Notes under the pieces: generated by a model | The model's database searches: none | What the model saw: only the letters and a program-made list of their open reading frames with translations | Told to the model about the DNA's origin: nothing | Position numbers and translations under genes: made by a program | In this document: one piece after another, positions 4,025 through 14,856 of the stretch | Layout of the letters: each line of letters starts with the position of its first letter | Position numbering within the stretch: the stretch's first letter is position 1 | Source: Nitrososphaeraceae archaeon | GTDB taxonomy: Archaea > Thermoproteota > Nitrososphaeria > Nitrososphaerales > Nitrososphaeraceae | DNA: 32,011 bases | NCBI GenBank assembly: GCA_044870765.1 | Contig: JBIOZG010000004.1 | Span: 1 to 32,011, forward strand | Direction: 5' to 3'

Positions 4025-5959
4025 ATGAAACCTGACTTTCCTTACTATTCTCAGATAGCATCTGCAGCCAGAGCAGTGAGAAGTATGAAGTGGAATTTGG
4101 ATTTTAGCTATTTTAGAAAGTGGATAGTGATTGGTTTTCTATTAGGCGTTGTTGCGGGACTGGGGGCAGTGGCGCTGTTTCTTTCCGTCGAATTTTTTAC
4201 ACGGTTATTCCTTGGATTAGGAGTAGGATATTTGCCTCCGTTGCCAGGCGGATTTCAAAGTAATTTTGTTTATACGCTTTTTATCCAGAAGCCATGGATG
4301 TTGCCTTTGATAACGGGATTAGGAGGTCTTTTGGTTGGATTGATCACTACAAAGTTCTCACCAGAATCTGAAGGACACGGAACGGATGCAGTAATTGATG
4401 CATACCATCACAAAAGTGGTAATATAAGAGGCAGGGTTCCTCTTGTTAAGGGAATTGCCTCATCTATCACTATAGGAAGTGGGGGGAGTGGAGGCACGGA
4501 AGGACCCTCAGGGCAGATTGCAGCCGGCTTTGGATCACTCATAGGTAAATTATTCAAACTGGACGAAGATGAAAGAAGGATTGCAGTTGCGGCTGGTCTT
4601 GGAGCAGGTATCGGAAGCATATTCAAGGTTCCACTAGGAGGTGCCGTCTTTAGTGCTGAGGTTTTCTATAGAAGAGATTTTGAGGTTAGAGCCTTGATAC
4701 CTGGATTGGTAGCTTCCGTAACTGGTTATACTGTCTTCGGTTTCGTTTTTGGATGGGACCGTCTCTTTACCATTCCTCTTGATCTAGTAAAATATACAAA
4801 TCCGATTTCACTACTTCTTTATGCTCTGGTTGGGCTGATCTCCGCAGGAGTCAGTATAGGATATGTAAAGACTTTTTATACGATATCGGATTATTTCAGT
4901 AAAATTCGGATTCCAAAATATCTGAAACCAGCTATTGGAGGTTTGTTAGTAGGAATGATTGGAATAGTATTTCCTCAAATATTGGGAACATCCTATGGAT
5001 GGTTGCAAATAGCGATAAACCAGAATTACACTATTTTACCACTATGGATTATTGGCTCAATAGTTATCTTAAAGATATTGGCAACTTCATTAACATTAGG
5101 TTCAGGTGGAAGCGCCGGTGTCTTTGGACCTTCTATGGTAATAGGAGGTTTTTTAGGAGCATTTATTGGAACAGTTTTCCACTTACTAGGATTATTTACA
5201 TGGGTAGATGTTTCTTCGGTGATCATAGTCTCAATGGTTTCGTTTTTTGGTGCCACTGCAAAGACACCGATATCGTCAATAATAATGGGAAGCGAGTTAA
5301 CAGGAGGCTATGCTCTTTTAGCACCTATGATGTTAGCTACTTTCGTTGCCTACATAATGTCAGGACAGCACAACTCCATATTCCGAAATCAAGTGCTAAA
5401 TAGGTCTGATTCACCTGCCCATAGAATGGAATATCAACTACCCATACTAAGAGATATGTATGTAAAGGATGCTGTTAGAGTTCCTGTCAATAAACTCTCC
5501 AAAGATGTTACAATTGATGAAGCACTACAAATAATGAATCGAAATAATAGCAAAATGATTGCAGTCGTTAATGAAAAGGAGTTGCTTAATGGTGTCGTTT
5601 ACAAACACAGGCTCTATGAGTTTCCTGACGAATATCGCAAGTCTATTAAATTAGAAAGTATTATGATAAAAGATCCATTTTTTGCATATAGCTCTGACTC
5701 GCTTCACAACGCATTAGTTAGACTATCCTCGAACGAGCTTCAAGAAATGCCAGTTTTATCAAATGAAAATAATAAGGTCCTTGGAATCATAACGATAGCA
5801 GATTTAGTAAAACTCTACGATAAAGAGGTAGAAAAGATAGTGAAAGTAAGGAACCCGTCAATTCCGGATATCGGTAATAAAAGAGACGAAATAGACAACA
5901 GTAATGATCGTCATTTAAGAGATAAAACTACAAATAGAGATAGTAATGCTCAAAAATGA
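4025..5959 (+). CDS. CLC-family chloride channel/Cl-/H+ antiporter with two C-terminal CBS domains
   Basis: GHGTD, GTEGP (gating Glu), GVFGP motifs, many TM helices, CBS pair. Confidence 0.93.
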   Translation: MKPDFPYYSQIASAARAVRSMKWNLDFSYFRKWIVIGFLLGVVAGLGAVALFLSVEFFTRLFLGLGVGYLPPLPGGFQSNFVYTLFIQKPWMLPLITGLGGLLVGLITTKFSPESEGHGTDAVIDAYHHKSGNIRGRVPLVKGIASSITIGSGGSGGTEGPSGQIAAGFGSLIGKLFKLDEDERRIAVAAGLGAGIGSIFKVPLGGAVFSAEVFYRRDFEVRALIPGLVASVTGYTVFGFVFGWDRLFTIPLDLVKYTNPISLLLYALVGLISAGVSIGYVKTFYTISDYFSKIRIPKYLKPAIGGLLVGMIGIVFPQILGTSYGWLQIAINQNYTILPLWIIGSIVILKILATSLTLGSGGSAGVFGPSMVIGGFLGAFIGTVFHLLGLFTWVDVSSVIIVSMVSFFGATAKTPISSIIMGSELTGGYALLAPMMLATFVAYIMSGQHNSIFRNQVLNRSDSPAHRMEYQLPILRDMYVKDAVRVPVNKLSKDVTIDEALQIMNRNNSKMIAVVNEKELLNGVVYKHRLYEFPDEYRKSIKLESIMIKDPFFAYSSDSLHNALVRLSSNELQEMPVLSNENNKVLGIITIADLVKLYDKEVEKIVKVRNPSIPDIGNKRDEIDNSNDRHLRDKTTNRDSNAQK

Positions 5960-7534: not shown

Positions 7535-7571
7535 GACCTTATGTGCATGAATAGTTACATAAATAATTATT

Positions 7572-8276
7572 TTATGAATTCTCAACTGATTTTGGATTTA
7601 TTATTCTTCTTAGCTTAAAAGCAACCAACGAAGTGCCAATAAAAGGAGCAGTCCAATATATCCACAAATCCCCTAAATAACCTGATAATAGAGCAGGAGC
7701 TAAAGAGCGAGCAGGATTCATTGAAGCACCGGAGATAAGTCCAAAGAAGAATATATCCAACCCAACTATTCCACCGATTGCAATACCGCTAAAGCCTCTT
7801 AGTCCTTTTGTAAGAACCACTGTACATATAACCGCCATTAAAAGTGCAGATGCCAAAACTTCTATCCCGAAAATGAAAGGAAGAGAAAAGTTATAGTTTG
7901 GAGCATTAGCTCCTAGATTAGCTTCCGTTCCAATGGCATATTTTACAAAAAGACTTGCAATTAAAGCACCTATTATTTCGGCACCAAAATACCATACTAG
8001 CAAATTTTTTCGTAGATGTCCTGTGATTAAGTAACCAATTGTAACAGCAGGATTAAAGTGGGCCATTGAAATCTTACCAAAAAGATAAACACAAATTGCT
8101 ACACCGATAAAAGGAGCAAATGCTATAAACGGAATTCCCAGTATTCCTCCAAGTTTTACGTCAATAACAATAGAACCTGTAGCGAACGTTACTACTATGA
8201 ATGTGCCAACAAGTTCAGCAAAAAATTTTTTTTGAGTTGTTGTTAACTTACTGATGAATCTTGATACTTGCGACAA
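7572..8276 (-). CDS. MIP/aquaporin family channel, probably arsenite-conducting (AqpS-like)
   Basis: HFNPAVT and SMNPARS NPA boxes; last gene of the arsM-arsC operon, overlapping arsC. Confidence 0.9.
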   Translation of the reverse strand: MSQVSRFISKLTTTQKKFFAELVGTFIVVTFATGSIVIDVKLGGILGIPFIAFAPFIGVAICVYLFGKISMAHFNPAVTIGYLITGHLRKNLLVWYFGAEIIGALIASLFVKYAIGTEANLGANAPNYNFSLPFIFGIEVLASALLMAVICTVVLTKGLRGFSGIAIGGIVGLDIFFFGLISGASMNPARSLAPALLSGYLGDLWIYWTAPFIGTSLVAFKLRRIINPKSVENS

Positions 8277-8688
8277 GCTCTTTTACTCGCTGGTCAATTT
8301 CATCTCTTATTTCCCTTATTTTTTCAAAAGATTTACCTTTAGGGTCTTCCAAATTCCAATCTAAAACGTTTGGTAAAAATATTGTTGGACATGATTCCTT
8401 ATCCATGCAACCCATATTCACAGTTTTGAAAGAGTTTCGCATCATATCCTCCGTAATTTCCTTGGATTTTTGATTACTAATATCAATACCAACTTCCTTC
8501 ATGACATCAATTACAACAGGATTGATTTGCGATACTGGCATTGTTCCTCCACTAACAGCTTTGTATCCTTCAGGTGGACTTTTGTTAAAGAAGCCTTCAG
8601 CCATCTGACTTCTAGCAGCGTTTTCCACACACACAAAAAGGATTATCTTTTCTGATTTTAGTTTAGACTTGCCAAGTGACAATTTCAT
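8248..8688 (-). CDS. arsC: Arsenate reductase, thioredoxin-coupled LMW-PTP type
   Basis: CVENAARSQMAE P-loop, resolving pair GCMDKESCP, W-LEDPKG. Confidence 0.92.
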   Translation of the reverse strand: MKLSLGKSKLKSEKIILFVCVENAARSQMAEGFFNKSPPEGYKAVSGGTMPVSQINPVVIDVMKEVGIDISNQKSKEITEDMMRNSFKTVNMGCMDKESCPTIFLPNVLDWNLEDPKGKSFEKIREIRDEIDQRVKELVASIKIHQ

Positions 8689-9458
8689 TTTGTCATCGCT
8701 CCAACAATTATACTTGTTATATTTCTTCCATCAGTCTTGTCTTCATTCATGTATAACTGTTCATTCAGGACTCTTACATTCTGAAATCCGGCTTCCTTTA
8801 TGCTGTTAATGTAATTTTCCTTTGTTAAAGCTCCATCAATGCAACTACACCAATCATCGGCGTTGATTGACTCTCCATGAACTTCTTTGTTTGTTACTAA
8901 ATCTGAAATTATCATTCTCCCTTTACCTTCTTTTTTCAGAATCCGATAAACTTCTTTGAAAGTTTTTACCTTATCAGTAGACAGGTTGATAACACAATTA
9001 CTAATAGCAACGTCCACCGAATTATCGTCAACTGGAATCGTATCTTCTATGTCTCCTTTTCTAAACTCAAGATTGATAAAGCGATTTTCTTTGGCAGCGG
9101 AAGCCGCTTTACGTAGCATCTCGTCAGTAAAGTCTATTCCAATCACCTTTCCACTATCCTTAACTTGTCTTGATGCCAGGAATGCATCTATTCCAGCACC
9201 TGAGCCCAAATCTACCACAATTTCTCCTGTTTTCAAATTAGCATAATTAATTGGAGCACCGCAACCTAGTCCAAGTATAGACGACTTTGGTATAGATTCC
9301 AATGCCTTGCCATCATATCCAATCGCAACCGAAGACAATTCTGGATTGGATTTAGTCGAGTTGCAGCAGTCTGGACCGCAACAACTTTCTGAATTCCCAT
9401 CCAACGCAATTTTGCCATATCGTTGTTTGATTTTTGCCTTCAAGCTTTCTTGTTTCAT
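8685..9458 (-). CDS. arsM: Arsenite S-adenosylmethionine methyltransferase
   Basis: SCCGPDCC, LGLGCGAP, VDLGSGAG (SAM motif I), SNCVINL, WCSCIDGA; 4-bp overlap with arsC. Confidence 0.93.
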   Translation of the reverse strand: MKQESLKAKIKQRYGKIALDGNSESCCGPDCCNSTKSNPELSSVAIGYDGKALESIPKSSILGLGCGAPINYANLKTGEIVVDLGSGAGIDAFLASRQVKDSGKVIGIDFTDEMLRKAASAAKENRFINLEFRKGDIEDTIPVDDNSVDVAISNCVINLSTDKVKTFKEVYRILKKEGKGRMIISDLVTNKEVHGESINADDWCSCIDGALTKENYINSIKEAGFQNVRVLNEQLYMNEDKTDGRNITSIIVGAMTK

Positions 9459-9524
9459 ACTATTATTGTTTACTACAGAAACTATTTAAATTATCAAGGA
9501 GACTATAGTAAAGCAGGTGACAAA

Positions 9525-9914
9525 TTGGAAACTAAAGGACAAGAAGTAAACCGACTGCCTATGCTTAAGAATGAATGTAACTTTGAAGGATATGATGCAT
9601 CAACTTTAATGAAGGAAACTGCAAAGGTTAGAAAGTTAATTACCAAAAGAGGAACAATGGAAATGTTAATTCCACTGTGCTGTTCTACGACTCCAGTAAG
9701 ACATAAGGAATTTAGACAATTGCTCAGAGGATTTAGTAGCAAGACGCTCGCCCGCAGATTAAAGGAATTAGAAAAAGGTGGAATATTAGAAAGACAAGCC
9801 TACAACGAGATACCTCCTCGGGTGGAATACAAACTAACTGCAAAGGGGCAAGAGCTCGTGGAATCGATAATTAATTTGCTGCAATGGATGAGAAAGTGGT
9901 CAAAGTCTAAGTGA
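9525..9914 (+). CDS. HxlR-family winged-helix transcriptional regulator, divergent from the ars operon
   Basis: GFSSKTLARRLKELEKGGILERQAYNEIPPRVEYKLTAKG; start uncertain (TTG 9525 or ATG 9561) because the ORF-track start overlaps arsM. Confidence 0.88.
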   Translation: METKGQEVNRLPMLKNECNFEGYDASTLMKETAKVRKLITKRGTMEMLIPLCCSTTPVRHKEFRQLLRGFSSKTLARRLKELEKGGILERQAYNEIPPRVEYKLTAKGQELVESIINLLQWMRKWSKSK

Positions 9915-10207
9915 TAATACGATAAATGTCGGAATATCAAAAAGAAAAATAAATATTGCCAGAGTAATGTTCTCTATTTAAAGAAATTAGAAATTCTAAT
10001 TGAGATCTATCTAAAAATCAGATCCATCCCGACGACTCAGATACGAATAAGAAAATTTTATCAAGATCAGAAAAAATTATTCCTGCAATCCGCCACCTCA
10101 CGTATTAATTTTGATTGCCTTACGTAATCATATATCGATTGAATGTGGAGGATAATCACAAAAGAAGAATCTTGTAAAAAAGTATACGATAGCAATATTA
10201 TAACAAG

Positions 10208-10322
10208 TCCCCTGCATGGTAAGGGGCTTTTTTCGGCCAGTCCCGTATTTGGCCTTTCCCCTTTACCGCAATAGTGCTTCGGGGAACGGGACCGAAACCC
10301 GAGACACCATTTATGCAGAAGA
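10208..10322 (-). ncRNA. Candidate structured ncRNA (three-way junction with kissing-loop pseudoknot), family unknown
   Basis: GC-rich island. P1 UCUUCUGCAU/AUGCAGGGGA; P2 UGGUG…UCGGG/CCCGA…CACUA; P3 GGUAAAGGGG/CCCCUUACC with GGCCA/UGGCC; loop-loop GUCCCGU/ACGGGAC; upstream TATA and downstream T6. Confidence 0.7.
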
Positions 10323-10477
10323 TAATGACCATGGGGCTAAAAAGTTTAATACAATTACTATCCACAACTTGGACCTCTTTCTTCGACTTCAAATATTATG
10401 AGGTTACACAAGGAAGGAGTATGTCAGAGATAATAAATCGAGTAATAGTCCCCTCTTCGAAAATAAACTATTTTTTA

Positions 10478-11626
10478 TCATATTATTTGTTCGTCATATC
10501 TGTTTTCTCTAATTAATTTTGACATATTTACCGCACCTATTACTGTTCGCTTGATATCTGTCCTCATTGCTGCACCCTCGTGAGACATCATTTTATCATA
10601 ATTGTTCTCAGTATCTTCAGCGTACCATCCTCTAGTCCATCCTGCGAACGGGAATTTACCAAACACAAATCCTAACTGTGACCAAAAAGTGAGCATCTCT
10701 CCAGCGACATGCTGAACATTGTCTTGACCTCCGGTTATTATAAAAGCCGCCGTCTTATCCCGGATTAGGTATTGTTGATTAGTAACTGATTGATTTTGAA
10801 CACAATTCATCCTTTGAACCATTTGATAATATAGAGAGCTTGCATTTCCCCATCTTATCGGAGTAGAAACAAGAACAACATCGGACCAAATTATAACCTT
10901 TTCATAGACTTGTAGCATTTCATCTTCTTTATCCATTTCTGAAATTGAACAAGGGAAAACACAAGCCTTTGCGTTTTTAGAATAATATCCTTCACAGTGC
11001 TTAAATTTCATGTTTCTCAGTTTAATCATATAACTTTCGGCACCTAGTTTATTTTTGGCATAATCTAAAGCAAATTTCAATGATTCTTCAGATGTGCTTT
11101 TTCTTGGGGCGATCTCGTCATTAGTATTGGTTGTAGAAATGCCCAAGACGTGAATTTTGTTATCACTTTGAATTATCGAGTCATTATCCTTATGTGATAA
11201 ATAGTTTCCAACAGAGTCTCGTAGTTCACTGTAGGCTTTGTGCGGCTTATAGGAAGTTGTTCCTAGCCCTGAAGGAATCATATCTACATACAATTTGTTA
11301 CCAACGATGTGTATTTTGTAAGTATTTACACTATCTCCTCCTTGATGTGGCGATTTTCCATTAAAAACATTATATTTCCATCCATGCCAAGGACATGTCA
11401 CTATATTGTTTTCCAAAGACCCCTGACTCAATGGGCCTGCTTTGTGTGCACAGACGTTAGAGATTGCATAGAATTTATCGTCTATATTAAACACTGCAAT
11501 ATCTTGCTTGATGCCTTTGGCTGGAGAAATAGAAAAGGCCTTTGATTGACCTTTTTTTATCTCAGTTTTCAAACACAGGTATTGCAGGCTCGGAGGTTGC
11601 TTGCGACTAGATGCAAATCTTTTCAT
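10478..11626 (-). CDS. Rieske [2Fe-2S] domain fused to flavodoxin-like (WrbA/Isf/NADPH-FMN reductase) domain
   Basis: CAHKAGPL…CPWHGW Rieske ligands; C-terminal STPIRWG and IITGGQD flavodoxin-fold motifs with CEGYYSKNAKACVFPC. Confidence 0.88.
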   Translation of the reverse strand: MKRFASSRKQPPSLQYLCLKTEIKKGQSKAFSISPAKGIKQDIAVFNIDDKFYAISNVCAHKAGPLSQGSLENNIVTCPWHGWKYNVFNGKSPHQGGDSVNTYKIHIVGNKLYVDMIPSGLGTTSYKPHKAYSELRDSVGNYLSHKDNDSIIQSDNKIHVLGISTTNTNDEIAPRKSTSEESLKFALDYAKNKLGAESYMIKLRNMKFKHCEGYYSKNAKACVFPCSISEMDKEDEMLQVYEKVIIWSDVVLVSTPIRWGNASSLYYQMVQRMNCVQNQSVTNQQYLIRDKTAAFIITGGQDNVQHVAGEMLTFWSQLGFVFGKFPFAGWTRGWYAEDTENNYDKMMSHEGAAMRTDIKRTVIGAVNMSKLIRENRYDEQII

Positions 11627-11685: not shown

Positions 11686-12774
11686 TTAATACCCTGTGAA
11701 TTCTTCAATTTTTATTCGCTCAGATGGAATTTGCAGGTTGTCATCGAGCATTTGTTGCATAGCCTTTACCATAGCAGGAGGACCACATATATAGAATATT
11801 GAATCTTTAAAGTCAGCCGGCTGAAGATACTTTTTCAACATTGCTTCGTCTATTCTTCCTTTTTCGCCTTCCCAGTCCTCGACCATTTTTTCCTCTTCTG
11901 TAACTGTATAAATGATTCTTAAATTCTTGTTACTTTTTGCGCATTTATCAAATTCTGTTTTATATAATATGTTTTGCTGATTTCTGTTTGAATCAAACAT
12001 AAAAATTCTAACTGGAAGGTTCTTATCTGTTGCATATTTTATCATGCTCCTAAAAGGAGTAACGCCTATACCACCGGATAGAAATACCGCAGGCTTTGAA
12101 TAGTCTTCATGGAGAGTAAATGTTCCTTCTGGCCCACGAACTTTGACTGTTGTTCCCTGCTGCAATGAATCCAGCCTCTTCTTATAAGGACTGTCTCTTA
12201 TCCTTGTGCTAATTAGAATAAAGTCCTCAGTTGGCGACGAAGCTATTGTAAAATGTCGTATGGGTCCCTTTGGATCATTATGCACATTTCCAATATCAAA
12301 GAACGCAAACTGGCCAGCAATATATTCTAATATTCTGTTTGGTCCATCTTTTTCCTGCTTGTTAAATTTTAATGTCAATATATCTGTTCCTTCTAATGTT
12401 TGTCTTTCTTTAAGTAACAAACTGTATTCAGATGAATCTGCAGCTTTACCTTCCTGTTTCCCAGAATCTAATCTAATCATTATATCATCTCCCTCTATTT
12501 TTATTTGATAGACGGATTGGGATTCAGTAGCAGGAGGAGCTTTAACCTCTCCAGTCCTCATATCGAACCTAGACTGGTGCCAGGGGCATTCGACCTCATG
12601 GCCTTCAAGTTTACCGTCAGCAAGTGGACCTCCTTCGTGACTACAAGTATTATTGATAGCATAGTATTTGCCATCAATATTGGAGATACAAATACTCTGA
12701 CCATCGACTTTAACTTCTAACATCTGGGAATCTGCAATGTCCCTTCTATTTGCAACCTTCACAAAACCATTCAA
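11686..12774 (-). CDS. Rieske ferredoxin fused to FNR-type FAD/NAD(P)H oxidoreductase
   Basis: CSHEGGPL…CPWHQS; RHFTIAS, GGIGVTP, YICGPPAM and C-terminal EEF motifs. Confidence 0.9.
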   Translation of the reverse strand: MNGFVKVANRRDIADSQMLEVKVDGQSICISNIDGKYYAINNTCSHEGGPLADGKLEGHEVECPWHQSRFDMRTGEVKAPPATESQSVYQIKIEGDDIMIRLDSGKQEGKAADSSEYSLLLKERQTLEGTDILTLKFNKQEKDGPNRILEYIAGQFAFFDIGNVHNDPKGPIRHFTIASSPTEDFILISTRIRDSPYKKRLDSLQQGTTVKVRGPEGTFTLHEDYSKPAVFLSGGIGVTPFRSMIKYATDKNLPVRIFMFDSNRNQQNILYKTEFDKCAKSNKNLRIIYTVTEEEKMVEDWEGEKGRIDEAMLKKYLQPADFKDSIFYICGPPAMVKAMQQMLDDNLQIPSERIKIEEFTGY

Positions 12775-14266: not shown

Positions 14267-14856
14267 ATTTTGTAGTTGATCCTTTCTTGCTTCTATTTGT
14301 TAAAGTCTATTATGGCGGACAGGGTTTGAATATTGTATATTTTGGGCACCAAAAATATTATTAGTCTGGACGTCTATTTTTTTGTGAAGTAAAGGTTCTC
14401 TATTCAAAGAATTCCGAAATTCTAAGTTTAACTAATCTGAAAAACCAGATCGGCCCGACGATCGAAGACTACTAACATATTAAATGCATTTCCACCGACC
14501 GCACATACAACAATCTATCAATCCAAGAGGTACACGGAGAACCTCGCTTAACAAAAAAATGAAATATAAAATACTAGCCAATCAGAAACATTTTCACTTT
14601 ATCGTGTACATAACTGACACTTTAAGTAATTTTCCGTTCATAATCAATTTCCCATAATTCCTGTTCGTCATCATTCAGAACTGCGAATTCAATCATATTA
14701 TCATACATAGACACAGCGATTTATTATTTATATATAGAGGAATGGCGCAAATAGAAAATTCATTATTAATATACTATACATTTTGGCTAAAATTGCCATC
14801 TGACTTTTGCCGAAAAATATCGTGGAAGAATGTTAATATCTGATGGATGACCTGAA

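Follow-up and report, generated by a model that had tools for sequence, protein, structure and literature searches.

A predicted free-standing RNA with a seven-base-pair kissing helix in the ammonia-oxidising Nitrososphaeraceae

Introduction

In many soils the Nitrososphaeraceae dominate among the ammonia oxidisers, and almost no regulatory or structural RNAs beyond the universal ones are known from this family. A stretch of 32,011 nucleotides (nt) from a Nitrososphaeraceae archaeon (assembly GCA_044870765.1, contig JBIOZG010000004.1, positions 1 to 32,011 of the forward strand), referred to here in its full length as the window, contains an island of high GC content (0.54 over positions 10200–10299, against 0.28–0.38 in the flanks), whose minus strand can be folded into a three-way junction bearing two hairpins with complementary loops. 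A first-pass annotation, made from the letters of the window, had proposed that this island encodes an independently transcribed, structured and possibly undescribed non-coding RNA, situated between convergent genes. The locus raises the question of whether such an RNA exists as a family and, if it does, what it would do at a place where no gene follows it on its own strand. Comparison with homologues leaves hardly any doubt that the element belongs to a real structured RNA family with this fold; regarding its role, the reading that we favour is that of a stand-alone RNA serving as a binding scaffold.

Architecture of the RNA

The element and its parts, together with the two sequence signals that flank it, are the following (window coordinates, all on the minus strand).

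10205–10324, minus strand: the whole RNA gene, delimited by the end-to-end match of the covariance models; the folded core is 10208–10322
10313–10322, minus strand: 5' strand of the closing helix P1, UCUUCUGCAU, from the sequence and RNAfold
10208–10217, minus strand: 3' strand of P1, AUGCAGGGGA, from the sequence, RNAfold and covariation
10298–10311, minus strand: 5' strand of P2, composed of P2a (10304–10311), a 2-nt internal loop and P2b (10298–10301), from RNAfold
10270–10283, minus strand: 3' strand of P2, from RNAfold and covariation
10286–10292, minus strand: kissing strand GUCCCGU in loop L2, partner of 10240–10246
10251–10267, minus strand: 5' strand of P3, composed of P3a (10258–10267, with A10263 bulged), an AAA internal loop (10255–10257) and P3b (10251–10254)
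10218–10238, minus strand: 3' strand of P3, composed of P3b (10235–10238), an A-rich 8-nt internal loop (10227–10234) and P3a (10218–10226)
10240–10246, minus strand: kissing strand ACGGGAC in loop L3, partner of 10286–10292
10344–10351, minus strand: TATA-like box TATTAAAC, upstream of P1 (29 nt from first base to first base)
10176–10181, minus strand: run of six T (T6), 27 nt past P1, a possible local stop signal only

The three helices, the two complementary 7-nt loop strands, the box TATTAAAC (10351–10344) and the T6 run (10181–10176) all lie exactly where the first-pass annotation had placed them. The closing helix P1 is built of 10 base pairs (bp), in which UCUUCUGCAU (10322–10313) is paired with AUGCAGGGGA (10217–10208), and it includes two G–U pairs, U10320–G10210 and U10319–G10211. 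The P2 arm ends in an apical loop, L2, of 14 nt, which includes GUCCCGU (10292–10286). The P3 arm is interrupted by an A-rich internal loop of 3 × 8 nt and ends in an apical loop, L3, of 12 nt, which contains the exact complement, ACGGGAC. The strands that connect the three helices measure 1–3, 2 and 0–1 nt in alignment A4 (described below), leaving about 3–6 unpaired bases at the junction, the sequence of which varies. RNAfold yields the same three-way junction for the minus strand at −49.7 kcal/mol (z = −2.86, with one of 200 shuffles as good) and a weaker fold, at −42.7 kcal/mol, for the plus strand. The isolated loop–loop duplex has a calculated stability of −11.2 kcal/mol.

Covariation across homologues

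Two covariance models were used to collect homologues. The first, R1, was built from alignment A1, which contains 18 of the 20 near-full-length blastn matches and leaves out L011, truncated at its 5' end, and L016, degenerate at its 3' end; it scores the window copy at 146.7 bits. The second, R2, was built from 57 diverse sequences. Four unpublished genomes (G020, G045, G087 and G125) are included, some or all of them, in the genome tallies given below, and one row of A1 and R1 (L006) comes from G020. The covariation statistics are based on alignment A4, whose 57 distinct rows come from the window's genome and from named public records; its 56 sources, at E ≤ 1e-4, were hand-picked against near-duplicates among 83 loci (L001–L003 and L076–L155). 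Two matches on the opposite strand (L151:1143–1274 and L103:2852–2985) were excluded from the analyses based on alignment A3.

Standard pairs are formed by 93.6% of the A4 cells, as against 80.1% in shuffles, and compensatory changes that alter both sides are found at 31 of the 41 pairs. The covariation score is 0.437, and falls to 0.08–0.105 when the 3' partners are slid by 1–3 columns; none of 500 shuffles equalled any of the pairing measures. Both sides change in all nine modelled pairs of P1, in seven of the eight pairs of P2a, and in all nine pairs of P3a, where 99.4% of the cells are paired. These counts for the nested helices lean toward the fold, since those helices belonged to the model with which the alignment was built, whereas the loop–loop helix did not. 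This latter helix, formed by A4 columns 42–48 with 102–108, is 99.7% paired, with a single unpaired cell overall, and three of its seven pairs switch type across the alignment: one is G–C or A–U in 49 and 7 rows, and the other two are U–A, C–G or U–G in 39, 12 and 6 and in 33, 18 and 5 rows, respectively. Five codes were observed in L2 (GUCCCGU, GUUCCGU, GCUCCGU, AUUCCGU and ACUCCGU), and the partner strand is mostly the exact complement, otherwise differing by a G–U wobble or, rarely, by one mismatch; some copies, such as L003, carry one C–A mismatch in the kissing helix. A 7-nt Watson–Crick complement between L2 and L3 arises by chance in 103 of 20,000 composition-preserving shuffles of the loops, and it is because of the comparative data, with 57 sequences and 0 of 500 shuffles as good, that the feature lies far beyond chance. 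The many homologues, and the covariation that all three arms and the kissing helix show among them, thus support the structured RNA that was initially proposed.

The innermost pair of P2b is unsupported, being G–C in the window's clade and G opposite A in 35 of the 57 rows. A mutual-information scan of A4 outside the known helices found no further complementary tertiary pairs; columns 44, 51, 101, 116 and 119 switch together between two clades and are not complementary pairs. Regarding conservation, the bases of the kissing strands are the most constant, together with the neighbouring loop positions and the A-rich loop inside P3; the junction and the P2 internal loop are variable. Finally, the homologues in A4 differ in length by 1 and 2 nt, which are not multiples of three, so that a conserved overlapping reading frame, the coding explanation against which the first proposal had been set, is excluded.

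Strand and promoter

The transcribed strand is the minus strand of the window. This follows from a near-invariant G–U pair in P2 (A4 columns 20 and 68), which is G–U in 43 of the 57 sequences, and from the asymmetry of the R2 score, which is 129.7 bits on the minus strand against 10.7 bits on the plus strand. The TATA-like box is kept among the paralogues and within the genus. When 66 distinct upstream regions were compared, TATA-like hexamers were found to peak at −26/−27 from the model start, 40 of the 66 regions having one that begins between −42 and −22. This fixed position places the putative start of transcription at about the first base of P1, and its constancy across genera agrees with the earlier claim that the RNA has a promoter of its own. 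Judging from these sequence signals, the RNA is probably transcribed independently.

Taxonomic range and copy number

Two further near-identical copies, C36 (97% identity) and C54 (93%), were found by blastn in the window's genome. Of 24 genomes sampled in the same genus, 17 have copies; none was found in 16 genomes from 16 other families of the order. The homology between paralogues spans the region from the TATA-like box to a few bases past P1, and the flanks are unrelated. With R1, the RNA was detected in 33 of 40 genomes of the genus, divergent copies at 20–70 bits included. With R2, it was detected in 109 of 151 Nitrososphaeraceae genomes, belonging to 16 of 18 genera (78 of 103 when the high-quality genomes are considered), and in none of the 127 genomes that represent 19 other families of the order. 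This family search produced about 190 matches in the 109 genomes, and coordinates were taken from the best 150. In addition, a degenerate two-loop pattern was scanned over one genome per prokaryotic species, which gave at least 118 stretches; among the matches listed, 79 of 80 records are labelled as ammonia-oxidising archaeon or Thermoproteota, and the named carriers include Ca. Nitrosocosmicus agrestis SS and Ca. Nitrososphaera sp. FF02. The sole non-archaeal label among the 80 belongs to an 82-bit match (L146, 157–279, minus strand) on a 2979-nt contig of a metagenome-assembled genome labelled Burkholderiales, and this contig is probably mis-binned.

Each of six single-contig complete genomes contains one copy, and some genomes of the window's genus contain 3–7 matches. 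Five R2 matches are found in the window's own genome: the near-identical C4, C36 and C54, the divergent C57, and the weak C22. The first description of the element therefore needs the correction that the RNA is multi-copy in this genome. The divergent copy (G000:C57:7488–7595, plus strand, which is L063:1501–1608) is of a second type, termed type B, with the code GCUCCGU/ACGGAGC and an R2 score of 62.9 bits; the weak one (G000:C22:23623–23738, minus strand) scores 44.7 bits with the same model. Truncated or chimeric copies are also observed in the window's genus (L011, L016/L052, L055, L057, L065 and L067), in which the 5' strand of P1 is replaced, the 3' half is degenerate, or the interior is replaced with P1-like ends kept. 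Pairs of copies in direct orientation, 2.5–13 kb apart on one contig, are found in L107, G006:C85 and G053:C70.

Comparison with known RNAs

The whole window was compared with Rfam 15 at gathering thresholds, and only the fluoride riboswitch at 1770–1844 was found (RF01734, minus strand, 43.2 bits against a gathering threshold of 34). For the region 10000–10500, the best match at E ≤ 10 is STnc430, with 23.8 bits against a cut-off of 47 and on the opposite strand, and the distant members L133 and L079 show scattered chance-level matches with no shared family. Neither the window copy nor these two members has an Rfam match, in keeping with the suggestion that the RNA is structured and possibly undescribed. 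A search of the full-text literature, with supplements and subscription journals outside its scope, found no description of this RNA; passages of one article (PMC13475601) concern the signal recognition particle (SRP) and RNase P RNAs of N. viennensis. We therefore regard the family as undescribed, fitting no catalogued family or system, which does not imply a new mechanism.

Several RNAs of similar outline deserve a closer comparison. The 5S rRNA (RF00001) is also a GC-rich three-way junction of about 120 nt, with its own gene and promoter in an AT-rich archaeal genome; it is not known to have a loop–loop helix. It was rejected as an explanation, the true 5S gene being located at G000:C12:42686–42805 (76.4 bits) and RF00001 giving no match to the element at E ≤ 10. 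The Alu domain of the SRP RNA (helices 2–4) is alike in its three-way junction and in having two hairpin loops that base-pair, but its arms and its loop–loop pairing are much shorter than those of the present RNA. An Alu domain supplied in trans was likewise rejected, as a full-length SRP RNA is encoded at G000:C30:10711–11024 (positions 1–317 of 317, 98 bits), and the archaeal SRP RNA model RF01857 does not match the element. An archaeal H/ACA RNA is a hairpin whose pseudouridylation pocket is two-sided, whose upper stem carries a K-turn or K-loop, and which is followed on its 3' side by an ACA box. This class was rejected too: A4 contains no GA/AG K-turn signature, the apical loops pair together, the bases after P3 are those of P1, and Rfam gives no match. 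The initial view that the element is not a known riboswitch, SRP RNA or guide RNA agrees with the Rfam negatives, with the SRP RNA found elsewhere in the genome and with the missing H/ACA features.

Association with Rieske/FMN-reductase genes

The genes that surround the RNA in the window are the following.

10478–11626, minus strand: upstream same-strand neighbour, encoding a 382-amino-acid (aa) Rieske [2Fe-2S]/FMN-reductase fusion (Pfam Rieske 1.3e-15, FMN_red 8.7e-07)
11686–12774, minus strand: second Rieske fusion reductase, with FAD_binding_6/NAD_binding_1 (FNR-like), adjoining the 10478–11626 gene
9423–9914, plus strand: HxlR-type regulator, convergent, downstream of the RNA (Pfam)
8685–9458, minus strand: SAM methyltransferase (Pfam)

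The RNA is located 154 nt past the stop codon of the 382-aa Rieske/FMN-reductase gene, on the same strand; the FMN-reductase domain of the product is flavodoxin-like. Within 1.5 kb of 74 RNA matches there are 191 open reading frames (ORFs) of at least 100 aa, and the largest homology cluster among them, comprising 13 ORFs, is that of Rieske/FMN-reductase. The coordinates of RNA and protein were then compared in the 151 genomes. At least 14 of the 68 genomes that have both, in five genera, carry the RNA within 1.5 kb of a Rieske/FMN-reductase homologue, a lower bound that derives from the best 150 of about 190 RNA matches; the unpublished G087 is counted among the 14, which become 13 without it. 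Six of these linked cases have the RNA 5' of the gene and three have it 3' of the gene, in both groups on the same strand; RNA and gene are convergent in four and divergent in one. Full-length copies of the Rieske/FMN-reductase gene number 1–3 per 2–3 Mb genome, and we estimate that chance would produce well under one such adjacency, a figure to be read with the relatedness of the genomes, which are not independent. In several complete genomes the RNA and the gene are 40–460 kb apart.

The remaining neighbours are varied and often of redox type, including a DAO-Rieske protein, a luciferase-like monooxygenase, a Rieske-FNR protein, SnoaL and glyoxalase, families that may simply be abundant in these genomes; hydrolases, TFIIB, UvrC and PolX are encoded at other loci. 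The next downstream gene is convergent at the window and at two other copies of the same genome. Elsewhere, the downstream genes on the same strand are heterogeneous (PolX, DUF559, PhoU, polyketide-cyclase-like, cytidylyltransferase and metallophosphoesterase), and no consistent downstream class besides Rieske/FMN_red was found at the loci examined.

Proposed role of the RNA

The reading that we favour, with a probability of roughly 60% for the whole, is that the element is a gene for a non-coding RNA of about 115–120 nt, provided with its own archaeal TATA-type promoter and acting as a stand-alone binding scaffold. Transcription would begin with the first base of P1 or a few bases to either side of it. 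The transcript would adopt a tight three-way junction, with the P2 and P3 arms clamped at their tips by the 7-bp kissing helix and the internal loops acting as hinges that allow the arms to close. The invariant bases cluster at the clamp, around it and in the A-rich P3 loop, whereas neither the junction nor the P2 internal loop is constant, and the functional surface is for this reason expected to be distal; it may be made up of the clamp and the A-rich loop and serve to bind a protein or a small ligand, although our confidence in any specific partner is low. As most copies have no gene to control, a free-standing RNA that would act mainly in trans is preferred to a classical leader. It is probably tied to the redox module around the Rieske/FMN-reductase fusion protein; from one genus to another, it could be the 5' leader of the gene, its partner on the 3' side or a transcript convergent with it. 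The family would descend from an ancestral single-copy gene of the Nitrososphaeraceae that was multiplied in the genus of the window.

A number of observations weigh against this proposal. No conserved terminator was found, a T5 run being present within 80 nt downstream in 18 of 69 cases, against 23 of 69 for the A5 control; with no oligo-T conserved after the RNA, the T6 run of the window is a local feature at best. In the divergent type B copies, P2 and P3 are retained together with the kissing helix, and no P1 can be recognised at the same place. Nine public sequencing runs from six studies share words with the region, each of them 4–9% of the sampled words, and in four of these runs, two of which are recorded as RNA libraries, the contigs cover only about 10204–10326, are 90–99% alike over it and then continue into unlike sequence. 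Since the likeness ends outside that interval, these contigs represent relatives or paralogues; as assembled contigs they cannot show ends, strand or transcription, and the flanks they leave uncovered carry no evidence. The genomes are, moreover, mutually related, and the counts overstate their independence. The Rieske/FMN-reductase protein is missing at E ≤ 1e-40 from 41 of the 109 genomes that bear the RNA and is therefore not an obligate partner.

A further objection concerns gene order. Six genomes from three other genera have the RNA 5' of the Rieske/FMN-reductase gene, on the same strand and at a distance of 21 to about 270 nt (21–63 nt in G182, G068, G087 and G124; about 270 nt in G090 and G100), and only a few tens of nt, with no T-run, separate RNA and gene at L133 and L147, two named Nitrososphaera loci. 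In those genomes the RNA is probably a 5' leader. The early statement that the RNA has no downstream ORF to regulate in cis consequently holds at the window, where the next gene is convergent, and fails in these six genomes. In the complete genome G068, the gene that follows the RNA (C1:979661–980595, plus strand) was matched as two overlapping pieces with an in-frame stop in each, and it may be frameshifted or decaying.

The comparative support for the family is unusually clean, extending to a long-range 7-bp loop–loop helix with several compensatory states. The recurrent linkage to Rieske/FMN-reductase genes provides a first handle on function, the covariance model can serve as an annotation marker for the Nitrososphaeraceae, and the named cultured or enriched carriers, Ca. 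Nitrosocosmicus agrestis SS and Ca. Nitrososphaera sp. FF02, make laboratory study of the RNA possible straight away. Should the RNA prove to be a sensor or a component of a ribonucleoprotein, it would constitute a new archaeal RNA class; if it were only an orphan structured RNA, it would still be a solid new family worth depositing.

Alternative explanations

The alternative that survives best, which we consider doubtful, is a cis-acting sensor or leader that ancestrally controlled the Rieske/FMN-reductase gene, the signal being perhaps a flavin, a metal or a redox-related ligand; the stand-alone copies would then be orphaned or would act through read-through or antisense. The RNA placed directly 5' of the gene in the six genomes mentioned above (21–63 nt in four, about 270 nt in two), and the close spacing without a T-run at L133 and L147, argue for it, as do the invariant loop bases, typical of ligand pockets, and the use of riboswitches by the lineage, exemplified by the fluoride riboswitch in the window. 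The architecture itself, P1 with two arms joined by a loop–loop contact, is that of a purine-type aptamer, and the purine riboswitch (RF00167) and other 'tuning-fork' aptamers share with the present RNA a closing P1, two arms that depart from a three-way junction, and a contact between the loops at the tips. In the purine aptamer this contact consists of two G–C pairs and base quadruples, whereas here it is a 7-bp Watson–Crick helix at the end of arms of roughly double the length, in which there are internal loops. The junction, furthermore, has about 3–6 unpaired bases and no conserved pocket, and the RNA is provided with a promoter of its own and in most cases lacks a gene that it could control. 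With connecting strands of only 1–3, 2 and 0–1 nt, the junction is too tight for a purine-type pocket and likewise for a hammerhead core. The purine riboswitch as such was discarded: RF00167 gives no match, the junction strands are short and variable, and no purine gene was found among the downstream genes scanned. A cis-acting sensor is also at odds with the lack of a consistent downstream gene at most copies, the next gene being convergent at the window and two paralogues, with the 3', convergent or divergent position of the RNA in eight of the 14 linked cases, with the absence of a recognisable expression platform or conserved terminator, and with the 41 genomes that have the RNA and not the gene.

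A broader proposal, and an unlikely one, is that the family is a new sensor or catalytic RNA class. A flavin, a metal or a redox-related ligand would then be bound in a pocket made by the clamp and the A-rich loop, or else the loops would mediate intermolecular assembly; in both cases the RNA would control or partner the Rieske/FMN-reductase module. Were it true, the RNA would be among the very few lineage-specific archaeal riboregulators, tied to the poorly understood electron flow of soil nitrifiers.

It is improbable that the loops pair between molecules, forming dimers or closed rings that would serve as an assembly scaffold like the pRNA of phage phi29. The covariation proves the pairing of the loops and is compatible with both intra- and intermolecular contacts, and the loop–loop duplex is stable alone. 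The codes of paralogues within one genome do not match each other (GUCCCGU/ACGGGAC in type A, GCUCCGU/ACGGAGC in type B), which would keep assemblies separate, and to bridge arms of about 13–16 stacked layers within one molecule would require bends at the internal loops. However, the arms appear to be of similar length and the internal loops may be hinges, so that intramolecular closure seems feasible, and there is no viral or packaging-motor context, the degenerate pattern scan having returned 0 matches among the IMG/VR viral contigs. A viral origin was rejected on the same result. The phi29 pRNA (RF00044) resembles the present RNA in being stand-alone, of about 120 nt, and in having a three-way junction and two mutually complementary loops. 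Its loops pair between molecules over 4 nt and build a ring on the phage portal, whereas the complement is here of 7 nt, the loci are archaeal and chromosomal, and no Rfam match is obtained.

We give very little weight to a self-cleaving ribozyme, or to an RNA belonging to a repetitive or mobile element, either of which would explain the multiple and partial copies and the variable neighbours. The 3–7 matches in some genomes of the genus, the truncated or chimeric copies and the direct-orientation pairs 2.5–13 kb apart are consistent with it, and a three-way junction with a loop–loop contact recalls the hammerhead and twister-sister ribozymes, which share with this RNA the distal position of that contact and often occur in multiple copies. 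Nevertheless, the RNA is single-copy in six complete genomes, it has its own promoter at each copy, and three members of the family match no ribozyme family in Rfam at E ≤ 10. The short and variable junction strands leave no space for a conserved catalytic core, which, together with the lack of an Rfam match and the single copy in complete genomes, makes hammerhead and twister-sister ribozymes improbable. As to mobility, no TnpB, IscB, reverse transcriptase, IS110 recombinase, transposase or integrase was found among the neighbours of the copies examined, and no viral contig was matched. The partner gene expected beside a TnpB or IscB omega RNA, a retron RNA or an IS110 bridge RNA is thus absent from these neighbourhoods. 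A TnpB omega RNA or a retron was rejected as well, the upstream ORF of 382 aa, a size similar to that of TnpB, being the Rieske/FMN_red fusion according to Pfam.

Finally, that the element is not an RNA, and is instead a DNA-level repeat, a protein-binding site or a small coding gene, as its repetition in the genome and the ORFs of 61–80 aa overlapping it on both strands might suggest, is effectively refuted by the compensatory changes at 31 of 41 pairs, the strongly strand-asymmetric model score, the G–U pairs that would be A–C mismatches on the other strand, and the length differences of 1 and 2 nt that break any frame.

Paired copies on single contigs

Two of the contigs with paired copies are as follows. 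L107 contains two full copies in direct orientation, 2.5 kb apart (4944–5060 and 7551–7671, both on the plus strand), which bracket an opposite-strand gene for a 560-aa FAD-oxidoreductase (DAO) that bears a Rieske domain at its C-terminus. On L206 (G053:C70), a full copy (1363–1495) and a 3'-half copy (14531–14596) have the same orientation and are separated by 13 kb. That such copies mark where an integrative element attaches, an idea suggested by the partial 3' copies and the direct-orientation pairs, is not supported at G053:C70, no integrase being found in the 10 of 20 ORFs of at least 90 aa that were scanned, seven of them between the two copies. The scanned ORFs encode a luciferase-like monooxygenase, a radical-SAM protein, an alcohol dehydrogenase (ADH), a glyoxalase, an HxlR regulator, an ABM protein, a tautomerase, SnoaL, a Rieske protein and one protein without family. 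Those located between the L206 copies encode the ADH, which is of the zinc type, the HxlR regulator, the tautomerase, the ABM-like protein, the radical-SAM protein, the glyoxalase and the luciferase-like monooxygenase.

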